A DNA stretch of 64,000 nucleotides, from the NCBI GenBank assembly GCA_964234715.1, contig OZ174278.1. The stretch is one strand, 5' to 3'. Origin of the DNA: Podarcis melisellensis. Its lineage: Eukaryota. Numbering within the stretch: the first letter of the stretch is position 1; every line of letters begins with the position of its first letter. A program made the position numbers and the translations under genes. The notes under the pieces are model-generated. The model searched no databases and was not told the DNA's origin. It was given only the letters and a program-made list of their open reading frames with translations. Shown piece by piece: positions 3,471 through 64,000 of this stretch.

Positions 3471-3883
3471 TGTTATGGGATTAGGGGGGCTACTCGTGCG
3501 TAAGCGTTTAAGCCCTCCAGGCTCTGCAAATCAGTTTCTAAACTCTCCCAGTCCGCGGAGCCATGGGTGCATGGCTACCTCAATCGCTGGCAGAATCCGT
3601 CAGTTGGCGCTTCCGGAATTTACGCCAACATAAGAGTTCCTTAACGGAAACTCTCCGTCTGGATTCTCTGCGTGACAGTTTCCTGCGCGGAGTAGGCGTC
3701 CCCAGTGGAGGTCCTGAGCCCTCCCCACTGTTCTCACTGGAAGCATTTTGGAGCCATTCCTCCGCCTGAGTTTCTGCAGGAACTCTCCCTCTCCCCCTGC
3801 TGGTTCCTTCCTCAGCATCTGAGGGTCTCCTAGCCTCCTTGAGCCCTTCCACCACCTGACTCTCCAATGGCAGTTCCCTGACA
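3471..3883 (-). mobile_element. Solo LTR (Gypsy-like), 413 bp, with internal open frame
   Basis: TGT...ACA ends and a perfect 5-bp TSD CTAAG (3466-3470, 3884-3888). Its 5' end TGTCAGGGAACTGCCATTGGA is shared with 7074-7506. Confidence 0.85.
3580..3882 (-). CDS. LTR-encoded 100-codon frame (acidic N-half, basic RR-rich C-half, ends LCW..RK..LTDSASD); no internal ATG, probably the tail of an element ORF
   Basis: Open from LTR nt 2 to TGA at 3582-3580. Protein-level similarity to 7247-7387 with many synonymous differences. Confidence 0.55.
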   Translation of the reverse strand, partial: VRELPLESQVVEGLKEARRPSDAEEGTSRGRGRVPAETQAEEWLQNASSENSGEGSGPPLGTPTPRRKLSRRESRRRVSVKELLCWRKFRKRQLTDSASD

Positions 3884-5070: not shown

Positions 5071-5321
5071 GAGGAAGAAGAAGAGGAGTTTGGATTTGAT
5101 ATCCCGCTTTATCACTACCCTACGGAGTCTCAAAGTGACTAACAATCTCATTTCCCTTCCTCCCCCACAACAAACACTCTGTGAGGTGAGTGAGGCTGAG
5201 AGACTTCAGAGAAGTGTGACTGGCCCAAGGTCACCCAGCAGCTGCATGTGGAGGAGCGGGGACGTGAACCCAGTTCACCAGATTACAAGACTACCGCTCT
5301 TAACCACTACACCACACCGGC
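5071..5321 (-). mobile_element. MIR/CORE-like tRNA SINE (Squam3-like)
   Basis: Minus strand starts GTGTGGTGTAGTGGTTAAGAGC (A-box), has GGTTCAC (B-box) and the core GGGTGACCTTGGGCCAGTCAC, and ends in a (CTT)n tail. Confidence 0.75.
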
Positions 5322-5554
5322 TTTGGTCCTCTAGATGTTGCTGAACTACAACTTCCAACAGCTCCAGAAAGCATGGTAAAGGGATGGTGGGAAATGTTAT
5401 TCCGCAATGTTTGGAGGGCCCAATATTCCCCATGCCTGATCTAGGGAAGTTGGAACAGGGATAGAAAACATCGTTTCCTCTGTTGGCTGTGGGCCCTGTT
5501 GATCCTGGTCCATCTAGTCCGGTCCTGGATGGGGTTGCACCTTAAGAAACAAGT

Positions 5555-6155
5555 TGTGATGGCCTGGGATTTGGACTTGGATGCTGAACCTGAGGGATCC
5601 CAGCCTGCACAGGATTCCCCGCCTCCAGAACCAGCTGAGCATGAGCCTGAAGGGTCCTCACCTGTGCTGGATCCTCAGGTGCAGACATCAGCTGAGTCTG
5701 CTCTGGCTCCTGAGGTGATGGAGGACCCATTGCCTGCAGGTGCTCCACTCTCAGCCCCGGCAGAGGAAGCTGAGGTTGCCTCTGGGTCCAGTAACCCTCC
5801 AGCCTCTCCTGAGCTACAGAGGCTCAGGGCAGAGAGGCGGAGGAAACTAAGTTCCCGCAGGAGGAGTGGTCGCCTCCAGGCCAGGAGAGACAAGTCACCA
5901 GAGGATCGGGGCTGCCCTATGCCTCGAGGCAGATAAAAGTCAGCCAGCCCCAGTCCCAAGTTGCAGGAGCAATATTGTTGGTTGCTAGTTCCTGCCTGAG
6001 CCGCCCTGGCTCCCTGCTTGCAAACCTGTTCCTGACTTCACCCAACTCCCTGCCCAGCATCCAGTTTCAGCTGCTACGGACTGCCTCCATGTTGCACCTT
6101 TGACCATGGACCGGACTTGGACTTTGCCTCTCGGGAAAACCATGGGACCAGCACA
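5555..6155 (+). mobile_element. Solo LTR (Gypsy-like), 601 bp, inserted into an old L2 fragment
   Basis: Imperfect inverted ends TGTGATGG...CCAGCACA. Perfect 5-bp TSD CAAGT (5550-5554, 6156-6160). TATA-like GATAAAAG at ~5932. Confidence 0.8.
5556..5936 (+). CDS. LTR-encoded 126-codon frame: Pro/Glu-rich acidic region then SP..RRRKLSSRRRSGRLQAR
   Basis: Open from LTR nt 2 (GTG ATG...) to TAA, which overlaps the TATA-like box. Same acidic-then-basic architecture as the two neighbouring LTR frames. Confidence 0.45.
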   Translation: MMAWDLDLDAEPEGSQPAQDSPPPEPAEHEPEGSSPVLDPQVQTSAESALAPEVMEDPLPAGAPLSAPAEEAEVASGSSNPPASPELQRLRAERRRKLSSRRRSGRLQARRDKSPEDRGCPMPRGR

Positions 6156-6618
6156 CAAGTGTACAATTTGAGATTGTTACTGGAGCCAGTGCTGCTTCTG
6201 AATATCCATGTTGAAGTGGTGGCCAGGAAACCCCTTCTTCCAGCAAGCATTTTATCTGATTATTTATTTAGAAATTCAAATCCCACCTTAACAGCAATGG
6301 GGAGAAAAGCCCTTCAGGTCAGCTTACAATTTAAAAAAAATAAAAAATGCAAGCAGCAATAAAAAGCAAGGGAAAAGATTAAAAAGTGGCTGACTCCTCC
6401 ACAGTATCCCTGATATCAGGCCTCGAGTGCAGTTTAGTACCAGGGACATGCTAACACTCCACTGATCAAAATGCCCAAGGAAATACTGAGATAGGGAATG
6501 AAATCAAGAAGGAATCCAAAAAAGGGGAAGTTGCAGTAATAGGTGACTTCATTTGCCATCACATAACTTGGCACATGTGTGTTCAAGTCACAACAAGGTA
6601 AAATTTCAGCTCCTCCAA

Positions 6619-6870
6619 GGTAAAAGGTAAAGGATCCCTGGACAGTTAAGTCCAATCAAAGGCGACTATGGGGTGCGGTGCTCATCTTGCTTCAGGCCGA
6701 GGGAGCCAGCGTCTGTCCACAGACAGCTTTTTGGGTCATGTGGCCAGCATGACTAAATCGCTTCTGGTACAAGGGAACACTGTGACAGAAACCAGAGTGC
6801 ACAGAAACACCATTTATCTTCCCACCACAGCAGTACCTATTTATCTTCTTGCACTGGTGTGCTTTCGAAC
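6619..6870 (-). mobile_element. Sauria SINE, 5'-truncated
   Basis: AAAGGTAAAGG (reverse of the ACCTTT tail), GGGTCATGTGGCCAGCATGAC and GTACCTATTTATCT..TTGCAC body. Confidence 0.85.
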
Positions 6871-7073: not shown

Positions 7074-7506
7074 TGTCAGGGAACTGCCATTGGAACAGGG
7101 AAGGGAGGTAGAGGGGCCATTGGGATACAGGGATCCTCCGAAAGTCTTGCGAAGCAGTTCCTCTTCCTGCGGTGGGGAAAGCCACACCTCCAGTGGGGAA
7201 GAGGGAAAGGGATTAGGGGATCCTGCCGGGAGGTCAAGCCGGCCAGGAGGGAAGCACGCCTCTTCCGTTGCCCACCTTGCGCAGAGGGGTAAAGCGCAAA
7301 GAAGGAAGCAAAAGACTGGGGGTGACGAAGTTCTTATGTTGGGGACAAAACCGGAAAAAGCCACTCCCGGATTCTGCTAGTGATTGAGGCAGACATGAAC
7401 TTTGGGGTTCCGCACTGTAAATAGTTTTTGCACCAAATAAAACCTGTGAAAGACAGGTCGGAGTCCTGCCTGGTTACTTGAGAGCAACCAGCCCAGCCAC
7501 CTGACA
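7074..7506 (+). mobile_element. Solo LTR (Gypsy-like), 433 bp, related to 3471-3883
   Basis: 7-bp inverted ends TGTCAGG...CCTGACA. TSD GTTAT/GCTAT (1 mismatch). AATAAA at ~7436. Confidence 0.85.
7075..7387 (+). pseudogene. Frameshifted homologue of the LTR frame at 3580-3882
   Basis: Starts VRELPLE from LTR nt 2. After a frameshift between 7217 and 7247 it reads EGSTPLPLPTLRRGVKRKEGSKRLGVTKFLCWGQNRKKPLPDSASD*. Confidence 0.6.
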
Positions 7507-10935: not shown

Positions 10936-11410
10936 TTGATGCTTTTGATGCTCAATTGATGCTTTTGAATTATGGTGCTGGAGGAGACTTTTGAGAGTCC
11001 CATGGACTGCAAGAAGATCAAACCTATCCATTCTTAAAGAAATCAGCTCTGAGTGCTCACTGGAAAGACAGATCATGAAGCTGAGGCTCCAATACTTTGG
11101 CCACCTCATGAGAAGAGAAGACTCCCTGGAAAAGACCCTGATGTTGGGAAAGATGGAGGACACAAGAAGAAGGGGACGACAGAGGACGAGATGGTTGGAC
11201 AGTGTTCTCGAAGCATGAGTTTGACCAAACTGCGGGAGGCCATGGAAGACAGGAGTGCCTGGCGTGCTCTGTTCCATGGGGTCACAAAGAGTTGGACACG
11301 GCTAAACAACAAAAATGTTGATGTGTGTAAGACAGGAGTGCCTGGCGTGCTCTGGTCCATGGGGTCACGAAGAGTCGGACATGACTAAACGGCTAAACAA
11401 CAACAACAAC
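10936..11410 (+). mobile_element. BovB (RTE-clade) LINE 3' fragment with duplicated 3' end
   Basis: ORF RVPWTARRSN.SILKEIS.ECSLE.QI.KLRLQYFGHLMRREDSLEKTLMLGK. (CAA)n tail. 11-bp TSD TATTGGCTCAA (10925-10935, 11411-11421). Confidence 0.92.
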
Positions 11411-19196: not shown

Positions 19197-20712
19197 GTTC
19201 TTTTAAGCAGCAAAGTTCACTGAAAAATCAAATGTTCAGTTTATAAGGGGGAAAATGAAACCTAAACACAAACAGAAGATGGGGAGAATTTTTTTAAAAA
19301 AACAGGGCACTGGAGTCTTATCCAGAGCTGTCTGCCCCTTCTGACTAGCCATGAGGTTGAGAGGGGGAGTTGAAATAATGCAAATAAAGAGGAGCTAAAA
19401 AGCGTTAGAGAAAGACAAAGCTCAGACACAGGAGAGAAACTGCTGAATCTTCATTAAGTGAAAGGTCCCTATTATGTGTGTGCACTTCACTGGGATCCTA
19501 TGGCCTGAGAGGCAGTTTATAAAGTACATTGACTGTTTGCAATTGCTGCATTTTGAGAATCAAGTGGAGCCAGTTCTTCCTATAAAGTCTAAGGTAAGTT
19601 GAGCTGTGAAAAGCTGTCCAATGAGCATTGGTTGGAGATGCAGTGAAATTGGGTAAGACAAGGTAGGCCCACTTGTTTTCCTTTTAAAAAATTATAATAA
19701 TAAGTTTTATTAGGGAATATAGAGAGGAAAATACAAAGCTTAATATCAAATATCTTTTCTCCTTTTTAAATCTTGAACTAAGACTTTAAGGAGAAAAGGA
19801 GTAGGAAAGGAAAAAGAGAGAAATAAAGAAAAGAGTAGAAAAAGGTTAAAAGGAAGAGAAAAATAAAAATTTATAAAAATATAGTGGACAGATAAATAAC
19901 TTCCCATTCTTCATCGGCCCACTATATATAAACACTTCTTTTCCAATGCAAAGAGACGGGGGGATGGGAATCAATGCACACTGAAGAAGAGCCGTTTATC
20001 TGAATGTACCCAGAGAGTCTATGGCCGAGAGCTGCTACTCACTTTCCATTCTGCACTTGGTTGCATATGCTACATCAACAGAGGACAATGCAAGGGCTAG
20101 ATAGAGCATTCTGCAGCCTTCACCCAAAAGGCTCCATCCCCTGGAGTCTTCTCTTGCTGTCGCTGTCAGTCAACCTCCCTCTGTTCTGCTCTCATGTTCA
20201 TTTGAGGCAGAGACAAGCAAAGTGGTGCAATTCTTTCGTTGCTGCTGCTTCAGGGGAAGAAAATACATTTACATTACTAAATGTGGCTTCCCAGCGAGCG
20301 CGTGCCCAAGTGAAAGCAACCAGCAGTCTTTGATAAGGCAGGAAAAGACTATAGAAGGGGAAAAACAAATAACCCTCATTCACCCAACGTGAATTGAGAT
20401 AAAGGCAAGAGGAACAAGTGGTTAAAAAAGCAACCGCCTCTGACATTTCCGCTTCAAGCAAGCTTTATCACAGAATAGGAGGCTTTTATTTTCTTACCTT
20501 TCCTTTTGATAGTCTCTCGTGACGCACTTATCAAAGGATGCCGCCTGACTTCCTTTTGCACTCTGCTGTGTTCAGATCTGTCATTTCATTGGGTTTTGAT
20601 TGCTTTGCTCATTATTCTCCATTAGGGATGGGCTTGGCAATCCTTTACTTCCAGAAAGATGTGTTATATCTAGAGCAGAAATTTTGCAGTCAAGAAGGCT
20701 TCTAAAGCCTAG

Positions 20713-21077
20713 GTAAAGGTAAAGGTACCCCTGCCCGTACAGGCCAGTCGTGTCCGACTCTAGGGTTGTGCGCTCATCTCACTTAAGAGGCCGGGAGCCA
20801 GCGCTGTCCGCAGACACTTCCGGGTCACGTGGCCAGCATGACAAAGCTGCTCTGGCGAGCCAGCACCAGCGCAGCACACGGAAACGCTGTTTACCTTCCC
20901 GCTATAAAGCGGTACCTATTTATCTACTTGCACTTAGGGGTGCTTTCGAACTGCTAGGTGGGCAGGAGCTGGGACCGAAAGACAGGAGCTCACCCCGCCG
21001 CGGGGATTCGAACTGCTAACTATGCGATTGGCAAGTCCTAGACACTGAGGTTTTACCCACAGCGCCACCCGCGTCCC
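20713..21077 (-). mobile_element. Sauria SINE, full length
   Basis: Minus strand head GGGACGCGGGTGGCGCTGTGGG, B-box GTTCGAATCCC and (ACCTTT)n tail. Same subfamily as 46108. Confidence 0.92.
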
Positions 21078-21168
21078 AGACTAGCCAGATACAAATTCTA
21101 TAGTTTGCAAGAAGTCCAGGAGTTGTTGTTTTCCAGCACTATCACCTGAAAGTTACACACCCACCCAC

Positions 21169-21170
<2 letters not shown>

Positions 21171-21214
<44 letters not shown>
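21171..21214. repeat. (AT)n microsatellite
   Basis: Direct reading. Confidence 0.95.
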
Positions 21215-21218
<4 letters not shown>

Positions 21219-21857
21219 AATATCAAGCATTTACCGAAAGCGACATGAAGGAATCCACAACCTGTAAAATTAATTTCCCTTGTGCTGTTTTATTTTCCTA
21301 TAAATTTCAACATGCTTTACGCCGCCTCCTGTTAATTCAATGCATCACAGATTTTCACACCCCGACATAGATTCAGCAAGCAGAGAAGCTGGAAAACAGA
21401 AGGATGGGTACAATAAAAGGACATTTTGCATAATCACTGAACATATGACCAGGCATTTATATTTTCGCTCACATTGTAGGTTGTTTTTTTCCATGAGAAA
21501 TCAGTTCAGTGAAGATGCTACAAAACTACCAGGTTATACTTTGATAGGAAAGCACAAGTGCTTTCATTTATGATGCACTATCTGTTAGAGCTGTGCAGTG
21601 GATTCCAATGAGTCCCAAATGGAATCGGGTTGATTTGGAGAAATTCAGGCCTTGGTCAAGTAGGATTGAGATAGCCCCTGGTCACCAAAGGTCAGTCTGC
21701 ATAGCCCAGAGCAATCTAGGGCTGCCTTGGGGTAGCACATAGGAAGGATAGGCAGGTGTGGTGCAAAGGAGGAGAAAATGCAAGAAGGAGGGACCAACCA
21801 AGCAGCTGCATCGGCTGAGGAAAGGTTCAGGTGAGCAGATGTCTCTACAGAGGAATA

Positions 21858-22209
21858 AAGGTAAAGGGACCCCTGACCATTAGGTCCAGTCGTGGCTGAC
21901 TCTGGGGCTGTGGTGCTCATCTCGCTTTATTGGCTGAGGGAGCCAGCATACAGCTTCCGGGTCATGTGGCCAGCATGACTAAGCCGCTTCTGGCGAACCA
22001 GAGCAGCGCACGGAAATGCCGTTTACCTTCCCGCCAGAGTGGTACCTATTTATCTACTTGCACTTTGACGTGCTTTCGAACTGCTAGGTTGGGAGGAGCA
22101 GGGACCAAGCAACGGGAGCTCACCCCATCGCAGGGATTCGAACCGCCAACCTTCTGATCAGCAAGTCCTAGGCTCTGTGGTTTAACCCACAGAGCCACCC
22201 GTGTCCCTC
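21858..22209 (-). mobile_element. Sauria SINE, full length
   Basis: 13-bp TSD CTACAGAGGAATA (21845-21857, 22210-22222), tRNA-like head and ACCTTT tail. Confidence 0.93.
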
Positions 22210-42993: not shown

Positions 42994-43650
42994 CAGTGGT
43001 GGCTGGTGCCTATTGGAACAGGTAGGGTTGAAGATAGGACAGCCAGTGTAGGTGGAGCCAGAGCCAATGACAGGTAAGGTAAAGGGTAAAGGGACCATTA
43101 AGTCCAGTTGTGACCGACTCTGGAGTTGTGGCACTCATCTCACTTTACTGGCCGAGGGAGCCAGCGTACAGCTTCCAGGTCATGTGGCCAGCATGACTAA
43201 GCTGCTTCTGGCGAACCAGAACAGCGCACGGAAACGCCGTTTACCTTCCCGCTGGAGCGGTACCTATTAATCTACTTGCACTTTGACATGCTTTCGAACT
43301 GCTAGGTTGGCAGGAGCAGGGACTGAGCAACGGGAGCTCACCCCGTCACGGGGATTTGAACCGCCAACCTTCTGATCAGCAAGTCCTAGGCTCTGTGGTT
43401 TAACCCACAGCGCCACCCACGTCCCTCCAATGACAGGTGGAACCAACTAATTATACTTTCCTCCTCATCTTCTCTCTGCTGAATTATGCAAGGGAAATCA
43501 CTGAGACTAAGGAGGAGGATGCTGACAAGCAGTGTCACCCCCAGGACTGGTTGTGAATAAGAAGGCAGGCAGGTGGGGGCTGGTTAAGAACAGACTGAGG
43601 TTGGTGGGGCAGTGTCCCATTTGTCCCCAGTGGAGAACCAGCCTCTACTG
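42994..43650. mobile_element. Old hAT-like non-autonomous element hosting a Sauria SINE
   Basis: Inverted ends CAGTGGTGGCTGGT / ACCAGCCTCTACTG; TSD degenerate. Confidence 0.5.
43076..43426 (-). mobile_element. Sauria SINE, full length
   Basis: 12-bp TSD CCAATGACAGGT (43064-43075, 43427-43438). Confidence 0.93.
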
Positions 43651-46107: not shown

Positions 46108-46468
46108 GGACGCAGGTGGCGCTGTGGGTTAAAGCCTCAGCGCCTAGGACTTGCCGATCGAAAGGTCGGCGGTTCGAATCCCTGCGGCGGGGTGCGCTCC
46201 CGCTGCTCGGTCCCAGCGCCTGCCAACCTAGCAGTTCGAAAGCACCTCCGGGTGCAAGTAGATAAATAGGGACCGCTTACCAGCGGGAAGGTAAACGGCG
46301 TTTCCGTGTGCAGCTCTGGCTCGCCAGATGCAGCTTTGTCACGCTGGCCATGTGACCCGGAAGTGTCTTCGGACAGCGCTGGCCCCTGGCCTCTTAAGTG
46401 AGATGGGCGCACAACCACAGAGTCTGTCAAGACTGGCCCGTACGGGCAGGGGTACCTTTACCTTTACT
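46108..46468 (+). mobile_element. Sauria SINE, full length, CpG-rich (young)
   Basis: Head GGACGCAGGTGGCGCTGTGGGTTAAA, B-box GGTTCGAATCCC, tail ACCTTTACCTTTAC, TSD TACCAAAT(GG). Confidence 0.93.
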
Positions 46469-47765
46469 TACCAAATGGTACTGGTGGAAAATATCCAGAA
46501 TGCATGAAACAAAATATAGAAAGCACAACATGCAGCAACCATGGCCAATGGGATGATGGAAGTGTAGTTCAGCAGCATCTGAAGGACCAGACGTTCTCCA
46601 TGCTTGGGGTGAAGGAAGAGGACTAAGTCCTAAGGGGCTTGACAGGAGTGGGGAAAGAAAAGGGGACGGGAAGGGATAGGAAACAATACGGAGGAAGAAT
46701 CAAAAGAGTGATAATGGTGAACAGGGCTGGACTAAGGATAGTTTGTTCCCTGCCTTCCACAGCAATCAAATCAGCAGGGGAAGAAACTTGGAGAAAAGCA
46801 TTATTGCCTGCTAACATCTGTAGATCCAGCTGCTGATAAAGGCACAGCCTCTAAAAATGCCGACAACCTTAGCTGAAAGTAAGCAAATGCAGCTACACAC
46901 ATTCTTAGAGTACATTTAAATAAGTGAGATTCTTTCAAGACTGTTGGGCGGAGGGGGTGGTGAATCCCACTTGCTAGGAAATCTTCTGAGAAACGTAAGG
47001 TGCCTATTTTCCCCTCTTCAATCCCCAGGTGGGTGTCGGCATTAATTAGAGATGGTGTTAAAGTAATGCTCCGGAGCTAAAGGAACCTGGCAGAGTCTGG
47101 ATTTCACACTGTCACTTTGACTCCTGATTAAAACGGAGACATTTCCATTGAAGGACCTGTAGCTGGCAATAGAGGGCGGTGGTTGTTCTTCAGAAGACTG
47201 CTAAAGAAGCTAGTGGAAATTTTATTATCTTGGTGAGTGGAAGAGACTTTAAAGGAATCATTAGATTTCAAAACTGAGTAGGATGGTAGGAGCTTCAGCA
47301 GCAAACACATTCTCCTGTGATAAAATGAAAAGAGAATCGTAATGCACTTTGTACACTGAGAAGCAATTTCAAATAGCTCTTTCCAGATGTTCTTTGAATG
47401 TGGGGAGACAAGAGTGGGAGGGGAATCATATGTGGCATCCCCATTCCCAGCCTCTACACCAGGGGTGGGGAAGTGGATGCAGCAGGCTGGCCAGATTATC
47501 TCCCTTATCACCAGAAGACAAAGTTTGACAGGTTGATGTGACCATAAACTATTAAGTGGATTATCAAAGACAGAGGGTGGTATTAAACTAGGTTTGTAAG
47601 TAGCATTATTAATATGATCTCCCCTTGTAGGTTTGAATAAAGTTCACAGTTACCGGGAACTGGGCCAAAATCCGTAAACAGAAAGGGTACACAGCAAGAA
47701 GAATTGAACAGACAGACAGAAAAGGAAGCCACAAACGCCTCTAAATGAAACTGTTATCTCTATAT

Positions 47766-57805: not shown

Positions 57806-58321
57806 AAATAAGTATTGTTGCTAAGCTATGAGACTAAAACAGGAAGGCACTCTTGCAGACATTTCTCCATTTGTAGATATAAGCATAATTTGCTCATATC
57901 TCCTCGACAGCAATGCTGTCTGGTGTGTGCTGAATAGAAAGAAGCTGAGCTAATTTGGAGGCATGGCTAGTAGAAATAGGCTTTAGAATTATTCCCTTCC
58001 TTACATGGCCTTCTGCCAGCTGATTCCATTCCATATCCAGGTGCAAGCTTCTAAACAAATCTAGATTTGTCTGGGTTTCAGAGCTTTTGTGTGTGGGTGT
58101 AGGGCTTCCGTTTCCAGACTGTGTAGCCATCCCTTTTTCTGCTCAGGTTAAATGCCTGTAAAATGTGAACATCAGCTCCTAGAAGTACAGATTCTTGGTT
58201 GCCCCATCATCATGAGATATGTCCCATAATTCAACCAACAATTTGTCCATGCATCCAATACACTCAAGAAAACAATGGATATTCAGAATAGAAGAAAATC
58301 TCCACAGTAGAGCCATGAATT

Positions 58322-58876
58322 GTTGTTTAGTCGTCTAGTCGTGTCCGACTCTTCGTGACCCCATGGACCAGAGCACGCCAGGCACTCCTGTCTTCCACTG
58401 CCTCCCGCAGTTTGGTCAAACTCATGCTGGTAGCTTCAAGAACACTATCCAACCATCTTGTCCTCTGTCGTCCCCTTCTCCTTGTGCCCTCCAACCATCT
58501 TGTCCTCTGTCGTCCCCTTCTCCTTGTGCCCTCCATCTTTCCCAACATAGGGTCTTTCCCAGAGAGTCTTCTCTTCTCATGAGGTGGCCAAAGTATTGGA
58601 GTCTCAGCTTCAGGATCTGTCCTTCCAGTGAGCACTCAGGGCTGATTTCCTTAAGAATGGATAGGTTTGATCTTCTTGCAGTCCGTGGGACTCTCAAGAG
58701 TCTCCTCCAGCACCATAATTCAAAAGCATCAATTCTTTGGTGATCAGCCTTCTTTATGGTCCAGCTCTCACTTCCATACATCACTACTGGGAAAATCATA
58801 GCTTTAAATATACGGACCTTTGTTGGCAAGGTGATGCCTCTGCTTTTTAAGATGCTGTCTAGGTTTGTCATTGCTT
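58322..58876 (-). mobile_element. BovB LINE 3' fragment
   Basis: KAMTNLDSILKSR.ITLPTKVRI.KAM.FPVVMYG.ESWTIKKA..RIDAFELWCWRRLLRVP. 14-bp TSD TAGAGCCATGAATT (58308-58321, 58877-58890). Confidence 0.93.
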
Positions 58877-62720: not shown

Positions 62721-63682
62721 AACTAACCTAGCCTAGCCTACATATTTGCATTAACTGCTATGCTCACTTTTTTGTTCTCCAGACCCACCCACCAATGACA
62801 AATAGCCCCAGAAAGTTGCCCATAAGGAAATGCAGCCCTTAGGGTATCAGATTGTCAAGTTTTTGAATCAGGGAGATACGTGTGAAAATATGTAGGCTGA
62901 AACTTAAACAGTAAATGTTGAAAGTCTTCTAGTTCTGATTATAAGGATCTGTCTTGTCCTCGTCACAAAATACAAAATGGCAATAACGTACAGTCAGATA
63001 AAGTGTTGATTTTCCTTAATGATAAATGAAATGAAAAAGATTTTAAATTGGGATGATGAATGTGGAAAGTCAGAAATCTTCTTGCTACAGCAGCCAAAGC
63101 CTCTTTTACGCTCCCATCTCATAAAAGTGTCGAGCATATTTAAAAGAGAAATATGCCAAAATTAAAATGGAGTAGAAAAAAGCCATTTTACATCCTTAAT
63201 GGCATAATGAAGTCTTTTTAATGTAATTTTCTTTACTCTTCTGATTACATATTCTAGAAGAGATTCTTAACTTCCCTTTTTATTAGGAGGACTGTTTGTA
63301 ATCATAATGGACTAAGAATTTTCATAAACATTTGATGAATATTAACCATTTAAAATTAAAAATATATATGTAGTTTATGCTCTCCCTAATGATTGCTGGG
63401 CATGGCAAAATTAATATCTAAACAGAAGCAAGATGTAAGTATATAAACTCCACTACGTAGCCAGAATAGAAGCCTGAAGGTTAAAATGTTGAGAGGTTCC
63501 CCATGCCAGAAGGCAGCAGTGAAGTCCTGTTATTGACATCCTATCCTTGAATCTTTGAGCTACCTATTCCTTAGCCCCAGGGGTGTTGTCAGCAGCAAAA
63601 ATCATCCTCATCATCTAGATGTTTTACCATGAGACTTCAGGGTGGACCACAGCAATCCAAAACTGTAACATTGACATCAATT

Positions 63683-64000
63683 TGTTGTTGTTTAGTCATT
63701 TAGTCGTGTCCGACTCTTCGTGACCCCATGGACCAGAGCACGCCAGGCACTCCTGTCCTCCACTGCCTCCCACAGTTTGGTCAAACTCATGCTGGTAGCT
63801 TCGAGAACACAGTCCAACCATCTCATCCTCTGCCGTCCCCTTCTCCTTGTGCCCTCCATCTTTCCCAACATCAGGGTCTTTTCTAGGGAGTCTTCTCTTC
63901 TCATGAGGTGGCCAAAGTATTGGAGCCTCAGCTTCACAATCTGTCCTTCCAATGAGCACTCAGGGCTGATTTCCTTCAGAATGGATAGGTTTGATCTTCT
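63683..64000 (-). mobile_element. BovB LINE 3' end (continues beyond the window)
   Basis: ORF 63692..63952 KLRLQYFGHLMRREDSLEKTLMLGK..GRQRMRWLD..WRALVHGVTKSRTRLND with (CAA)n tail. Confidence 0.93.

Follow-up and report, generated by a model that had tools for sequence, protein, structure and literature searches.

Results

A solo LTR with a long open frame in U3

The window analysed here is a 64,000-nucleotide stretch of Podarcis melisellensis DNA (assembly GCA_964234715.1, contig OZ174278.1). Sequence inspection places an element of 601 bp, TGTGATGG...AGCACA, at 5555-6155, bracketed by CAAGT at 5550-5554 and again at 6156-6160. The features of this element are as follows, all on the plus strand.

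5550..5554 (+), left target-site duplication CAAGT, in the flanking sequence of the LTR
5555..6155 (+), solo LTR of a Tf1/Sushi-type chromovirus (Ty3/gypsy), with TG..CA ends and a 5-bp duplication; LTRs of its subfamily are joined to gag-pol elsewhere
5556..5936 (+), U3 reading frame of 126 codons plus stop (130 in most copies), equivalent to the C-terminal Pol integrase tail of full-length relatives
5556..5810 (+), linker, residues 1-85, acidic and proline-rich in composition, a likely disordered tether
5559..5561 (+), ATG within the LTR terminus TGTGATG, an internal Met of Pol in 3′ LTRs
5811..5933 (+), basic end segment, residues 86-126, defined by composition; between subfamilies the best-kept part after the first 28 columns
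5859..5876 (+), HMGN-like motif RRSGRL (RRSARL in most intact copies), following the motif definition in the accessible text of PMC12487698 and PMC13347269
5932..5939 (+), TATA-like GATAAAAG, overlapping the stop codon, a putative promoter element
5963..5972 (+), predicted R start (RNA 5′ end), complementary to the self-priming site found after 5′ LTRs
6156..6160 (+), right target-site duplication CAAGT, in the flanking sequence of the LTR

The frame that opens at nucleotide 2 of the LTR (5556) comprises 126 codons and closes at a TAA (5934-5936) inside GATAAAAG (5932-5939), just as the initial annotation had read it. Its description of a long E/D/P-rich tract also holds, with 18 D/E, 17 P and no R/K in residues 1-85, followed by a basic, motif-bearing end with 16 R/K in residues 86-126. 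The same is true of the dissimilarity that it noted to the other two LTRs of the window, at 3471-3883 (-) and 7074-7506 (+), which share only words of 11-13 nt with the focal LTR. Pfam searches with two tails returned no family above the cut-off. In first-order Markov simulations of the focal U3, an opening of 126 codons from nucleotide 2 arose in 279 of 20,000 sequences (1.4%). These simulations and the dN/dS tests described below rule out chance openness due to GC-rich composition.

A genome search with the focal LTR yielded 2506 first-look candidates, of which 40 were scored and the best 30 examined. The copies are spread over many contigs. Among the best 30, perfect 5-bp target duplications flank 20, and the frame is intact to the same stop in 17, with 130 codons in 15 of these; none of the 30 is preceded by a long frame. 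The conservation of the frame across copies that the initial annotation had asked for is therefore borne out by the 17 copies that keep the stop and by purifying selection between subfamilies, rather than being mere GC-rich openness.

The focal insertion is old, since contigs from two other organisms (runs X21 and X22) span its 3′ junction. Contigs from two runs, guessed to be RNA, cover the focal LTR only by short multi-copy pieces that are not locus-specific. The focal copy is an ordinary, old solo LTR, likely silent and decaying. Elsewhere in the window, eight repeats (5074-5322, 6617-6870, 10954-11406, 20710-22207, 43074-43425, 46127-46470, 58320-58734 and 63682-64000) are abundant and interspersed; we take them to resemble squamate SINE and LINE pieces.

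Pol extends into the 3′ LTR in full-length relatives

In sister subfamilies, the gag-pol frame runs through integrase, chromodomain, polypurine tract and 3′ LTR as one. A search pattern that combined a purine tract with the LTR start had 313 overlapping matches; the 30 loci taken from these represent 18 distinct places, 17 of them with pol upstream. At 11 of these 17 3′ ends, the chromodomain is followed by the polypurine tract and then by the LTR in the nucleotide-2 phase (...GRGDG/VMAWDS...), and 7 of the 11 are open across all 503-504 codons examined. The other 6 of the 17 are frameshifted in a G run shortly before the polypurine tract. The tail that the initial annotation described as LTR-encoded is indeed so, and in full-length relatives it forms the C terminus of Pol integrase.

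Six elements were examined whole. Two of them, L065 and L066, are intact, with LTRs that are 99.8-100% alike, a 5-bp duplication and a single 1575-codon frame terminating in the 3′ LTR, and the other four are deleted or broken. The L066 product (1545 aa) carries, according to Pfam, capsid, protease, RT, RNase H, integrase, SH3 and a chromodomain (Chromo, PF00385, at 1365-1412). Among the matches listed, 42 of 150 lie within a 1575-codon frame and 7 within frames of 1464-1465 codons. Tails in the sister subfamilies measure 111-120 codons. The nearest named protein, from Podarcis muralis, is 85% identical over the query region, and the nearest proteins overall are chromodomain-bearing Pols of lizard, frog, fish and fungi. 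Proteins of Anolis, Rhineura, Salvator and Naja share the V-M junction at the LTR start.

The frameshift in the G run before the polypurine tract was seen in L165-L172, L032, L048, L052, L055 and L201, and most copies that carry it end Pol at the LTR edge, as ordinary chromoviruses do. These frameshifts are scattered on the tree and reflect either recurrent slips or assembly error. The tree comprises 22 sister copies chosen by trait (14 long, 8 short) and is star-like, weak and of low power; it gives no support to a tail-less lineage, as the 8 short copies need 7 changes against a shuffled mean of 6.8. Many near-identical interrupted copies cluster on contig C19. A truncated element of the window subfamily occupies six places within C4:101.2-101.7 Mb, probably through segmental duplication.

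For the subfamily to which the focal LTR belongs, three loci (L133, L134 and L204) have a 5′ LTR followed by the same primer site and by gag-pol, the latter ~82-85% alike to that of the sisters. Pattern searches behind the polypurine tract recovered no 3′ LTR of the exact window subfamily with pol upstream: one search gave 4 matches, all without a pol-type tract. A pattern with the focal copy's private LTR end gave 0 matches, and one with the common end gave 2. Read-through in this subfamily is therefore deduced rather than seen. L201 is the full-length element nearest to the focal LTR; its U3 is 82-87% alike to the 30 copies, and it has a chromodomain and the same polypurine tract, followed by an open tail of 130 codons, with a frameshift just before the tract. 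We conclude that the window's own subfamily very probably read Pol through into the 3′ LTR likewise.

Predicted RNA start and the ATG of the LTR terminus

The sequence after the 5′ LTRs is complementary to a stretch ~30 nt past the TATA-like box. This complementarity predicts self-priming, a trait ascribed to the Tf1/Sushi group in the accessible text of PMC6317226. From the complementarity and the spacing to the TATA-like box, we infer an RNA start near 5963. Because the stop at 5934-5936 precedes this predicted start, the frame would belong to U3 and would be transcribed only from a 3′ LTR, within genomic RNA. For the same reason, no transcript of it would be expected from a solo LTR.

The ATG at 5559 is kept in most copies, and the accessible text of PMC3059260 describes plant CRM LTRs that likewise start with TGATG. 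The significance that the initial annotation gave to this copy having its own ATG falls away, as the triplet is part of the terminus TGTGATG, the U3 frame precedes the predicted RNA start, and decay among solo copies is close to neutral. In two automatic gene models, P0132 and P0134, the LTR Met is the first residue and the tail is joined to gag; both are likely prediction artefacts.

Selection on the tail

To assess selection, we applied the pairwise NG86 method to natural copies, using only those whose frame is intact, and compared 17 window-subfamily copies with 12 sister copies. Net dN/dS between the subfamilies is 0.41 (bootstrap over codons 0.26-0.63), and shifted frames of the same alignment give 2.11 and 1.13. 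Constraint on pol between sister subfamilies is stronger than on the tail, with a dN/dS of ~0.10. Along the tail, the values are 0.26 (0.08-0.77) for the first 28 columns, 0.43 (0.16-1.03) for the linker and 0.37 (0.09-1.09) for the helix and motif. Within the window subfamily, dN is 0.070 and dS 0.084, and of the 13 private indels that fall in the frame, 11 have a length not divisible by three. Between subfamilies the tail evolves under purifying selection, and among solo copies it undergoes near-neutral decay, so source elements kept the peptide and solo copies do not.

The six motif codons are identical in both subfamilies save for the last position, and they lie ~55-75 nt before the TATA-like box. 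This near-identity and the proximity to the box make a promoter constraint at the DNA level possible.

An HMGN-like motif at the end of the tail

Within the window subfamily, 10 of 17 intact copies carry RRSxRL and 8 carry RRSARL; 5 of the 17 have lost the last motif arginine by CpG-type changes. RRSARL is present in 15 of 17 sister copies. The RRSxRL motif reported in the initial annotation is thus conserved, and it recurs in Anolis. Its RRSGRL wording, with a glycine, is private to the focal copy, and the RRSARL found in 8 of 17 intact copies is closer to HMGN.

Anolis tails are 135-140 residues long and have a barely similar linker, ending in RRSARIAA or RRSLRIAA. These ends occur in all 10 chromodomain-reaching Anolis members among the 14 cluster members listed. 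Two metagenome proteins, P0221 and P0306, end in RRSARLAAAH and RRSLRIQRRMNA (RRSARL and RRSLRI, respectively). P0221 also shares the D-T-V-M junction and has a long tail, and another metagenome protein with a chromodomain, P0308, has a terminal RRSTRR. Across 216 post-chromodomain tails of 21-200 residues, RRSxR[LI] is present in 5, in each case at most 16 residues from the end (shuffle mean 0.12), and absent from 211. The 5 tails represent at most three independent cases because three of them are lizard relatives.

According to the accessible text of PMC12487698, cryo-EM structures show the acidic patch bound by RRSAR in HMGN2 and by RRSSR in Dsup, and the arginine anchor is the fifth residue. 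Yeast Dot5 is described in the accessible part of PMC13347269 as binding the acidic patch in vitro via RRSARIAT. The RRSxR core with its fifth-place anchor arginine is present in the focal tail (RRSGR). The full RRSARLSA is absent, the family reading RRSARL[QK]A, and no HMGN family appears among the Pfam matches up to E 1. A predicted complex of H2A and H2B (from L115) with the last 40 residues of L066 Pol scored 0.02 against a mark of 0.34, which speaks neither for nor against binding. AlphaFold 3 likewise fails on the HMGN2-nucleosome complex, as stated in the accessible text of PMC12487698.

Other chromoviral tails

The window LTR at 3471-3883 (-) is a young solo LTR of a second chromovirus family, with the 5-bp duplication CTAAG; its site is empty in run X22. 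Three of 30 copies of this family are 3′ LTRs (L073, L085 and L096), and in all three Pol enters the LTR in the same phase. The integrase region of the second family is 48% identical to that of L066, and its tail lacks RRSxRL, with RGRG and a basic end instead. The aromatic cage of the L073 chromodomain is altered. The LTR at 7074-7506 (+) is related to that at 3471-3883, has a duplication with one mismatch and contains ~100 open codons from nucleotide 2, without RRSxRL. The coding architecture that the initial annotation saw as common to the window LTRs is shared insofar as the second family also runs Pol into the LTR, but that family is without the motif.

The fish integrases P0031 and P0198 and their relatives (Hemibagrus, Astyanax) bear RGRP repeats after the chromodomain, another chromatin-binding add-on. 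We take these repeats to resemble AT-hooks.

Discussion

The account that we favour, with modest confidence, is that the locus holds a decaying solo LTR whose U3 frame is the end of gag-pol in relatives, and that the RRSARL of the encoded tail tethers the integration complex to the acidic patch of H2A-H2B. In this arrangement, the integrase would carry a chromodomain, then a flexible acidic linker and then the terminal HMGN-like RRSARL, and the tail would stay attached to integrase after proteolysis. The chromodomain and the terminal arginine anchor could then grip the nucleosome at two points. Such a grip may keep integrase on chromatin or present the target, with a possible effect on site choice. 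Binding of the motif to the acidic patch, judged by its likeness to known anchors, we consider slightly more probable than its absence.

The tail could also be a genuine part of integrase whose basic end serves as a nuclear or nucleolar import signal or as a plain DNA-binding patch, the HMGN match being incidental. The 16 R/K of residues 86-126 agree with this reading, as do the different basic ends found elsewhere, namely RRKLSRRESRRR in the second family, RKRGRP in Rhineura P0158 and the RGRP repeats of fish P0031 and P0198. Short arginine-rich motifs also serve as import signals, and titles in the reference list of PMC3605345 attribute a C-terminal import signal to Ty1 integrase. Basic residues alone would suffice for import, yet Podarcis, Anolis and two metagenome proteins all show the S-x-R-[LI]-x-A spacing. 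We regard an incidental match as unlikely, albeit a serious contender, and import and anchor roles are not exclusive. If the tail were instead tolerated read-through, with the peptide idle, the conserved part would be the promoter DNA of U3. The near-identity of the motif codons between subfamilies fits this reading, copies with Pol ending at the LTR start recur, and most chromoviruses end at or near that point. However, dN/dS falls below 1 in the nucleotide-2 frame only, the frame is kept at tail lengths of 111, 117, 120 and 130 codons, and in Anolis the motif is found again at the peptide level, with I in place of L and L in place of A. Short copies are, moreover, scattered on the tree, star-like and weak as it is, with no tail-less lineage seen. 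An idle peptide is accordingly improbable.

Retroviral nef and sag are stand-alone LTR genes. A comparable gene starting at the ATG at 5559, expressed from spliced or read-through RNA, or co-option by the host at this locus, would be in keeping with the retention of the ATG in most copies, with the gene models P0132 and P0134 that begin at the LTR Met, and with the presence of the insertion's 3′ junction in runs of two other organisms. Yet the ATG belongs to the terminal TGTGATG, and the predicted start site is located downstream of the frame. Decay of the solo copies is nearly neutral, as the dN of 0.070, the dS of 0.084 and the 11 of 13 indels that are not multiples of three attest, and the focal copy has a private change in the motif itself. 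A stand-alone gene at this locus is very improbable.

For chromovirus integrases, the chromodomain alone has so far been the candidate for choosing or holding target nucleosomes; the anchor reading that we favour adds a second module, encoded by the LTR. If it is true, these elements would possess a bivalent integrase with a chromodomain and an arginine anchor, and this would be the first use of an HMGN motif by a mobile element. A ready nucleosome-binding coding module would then be present in tens of intact young copies and in thousands of solo LTRs. We tentatively raise a broader possibility, which we hold to be somewhat less probable than not, that U3 is a swappable slot for integrase tethers across chromoviruses, with a true HMGN-type anchor in one lizard lineage and perhaps, independently, in some fungal-type elements. 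For annotation, this means that a long frame open from nucleotide 2 in a lizard solo LTR is an integrase tail rather than a gene.

Comparison with known systems

The element fits Tf1/Sushi chromoviruses in every feature tested by sequence (domain order, chromodomain and self-priming site). As in Sushi-ichi and its relatives, there is a single gag-pol in the order gag-PR-RT-RH-IN, with a C-terminal chromodomain in L066 and L201. It likewise has a predicted self-priming site instead of a tRNA primer site, TG..CA ends and a 5-bp duplication. Unlike in that group, the lizard Pol passes the LTR edge and continues into U3 for another 111-130 codons, with an HMGN-like motif at its end. UniRef already contains the tailed proteins as automatic predictions. 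We found no description of a vertebrate chromovirus Pol that enters the LTR, or of an HMGN-like integrase motif, in a search that had closed journals, Repbase reports and supplements outside its scope. PMC3601003 models Sushi LTRs, and 'ORF' and 'open reading frame' are absent from its accessible text; 'retrotransposon' and 'HMGN' are absent from the accessible text of the review PMC9040877.

The closest analogue is found in plants. In CRM group A (Cereba, Beetle), the frame extends into the 3′ LTR and encodes a CR motif behind a tether, according to the accessible texts of PMC3059260, PMC3605345 and PMC11302176. The lizard polyprotein frame likewise enters the 3′ LTR, as seen in the sister subfamilies. 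CRM elements, however, lost the chromodomain and are proposed to bind CENH3, whereas the lizard elements keep the chromodomain and have a motif of the RRSAR type rather than the CR motif TRARAR/K. By analogy, the lizard element appears to work like CRM group A but is not a member of it. If the motif binds nucleosomes, it would provide an animal parallel to the plant CR motif, which is also encoded by the 3′ LTR.

The motif itself resembles those of HMGN, Dsup and Dot5 in having an RRSAR core followed by L or I inside a charged, low-complexity chain, and the Anolis RRSARIAA matches the RRSARIAT of Dot5 in 7 of 8 residues. Unlike HMGN, it continues with Q/K-A instead of S-A and is carried by a retrotransposon integrase, and the likeness is one of sequence alone; judged on that sequence, the tail is not an HMGN protein. 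In KSHV LANA, foamy virus Gag and MLV p12, too, a short arginine motif is proposed to keep a mobile genome or an integration complex attached to nucleosomes (PMC9040877, accessible text). Those motifs reside on Gag products or latency proteins, in contrast to the lizard motif, which is encoded by U3 and sits on integrase. Provided that it binds as proposed, arginine-anchor tethering would extend from LANA and foamy Gag to the integrase of a retrotransposon.
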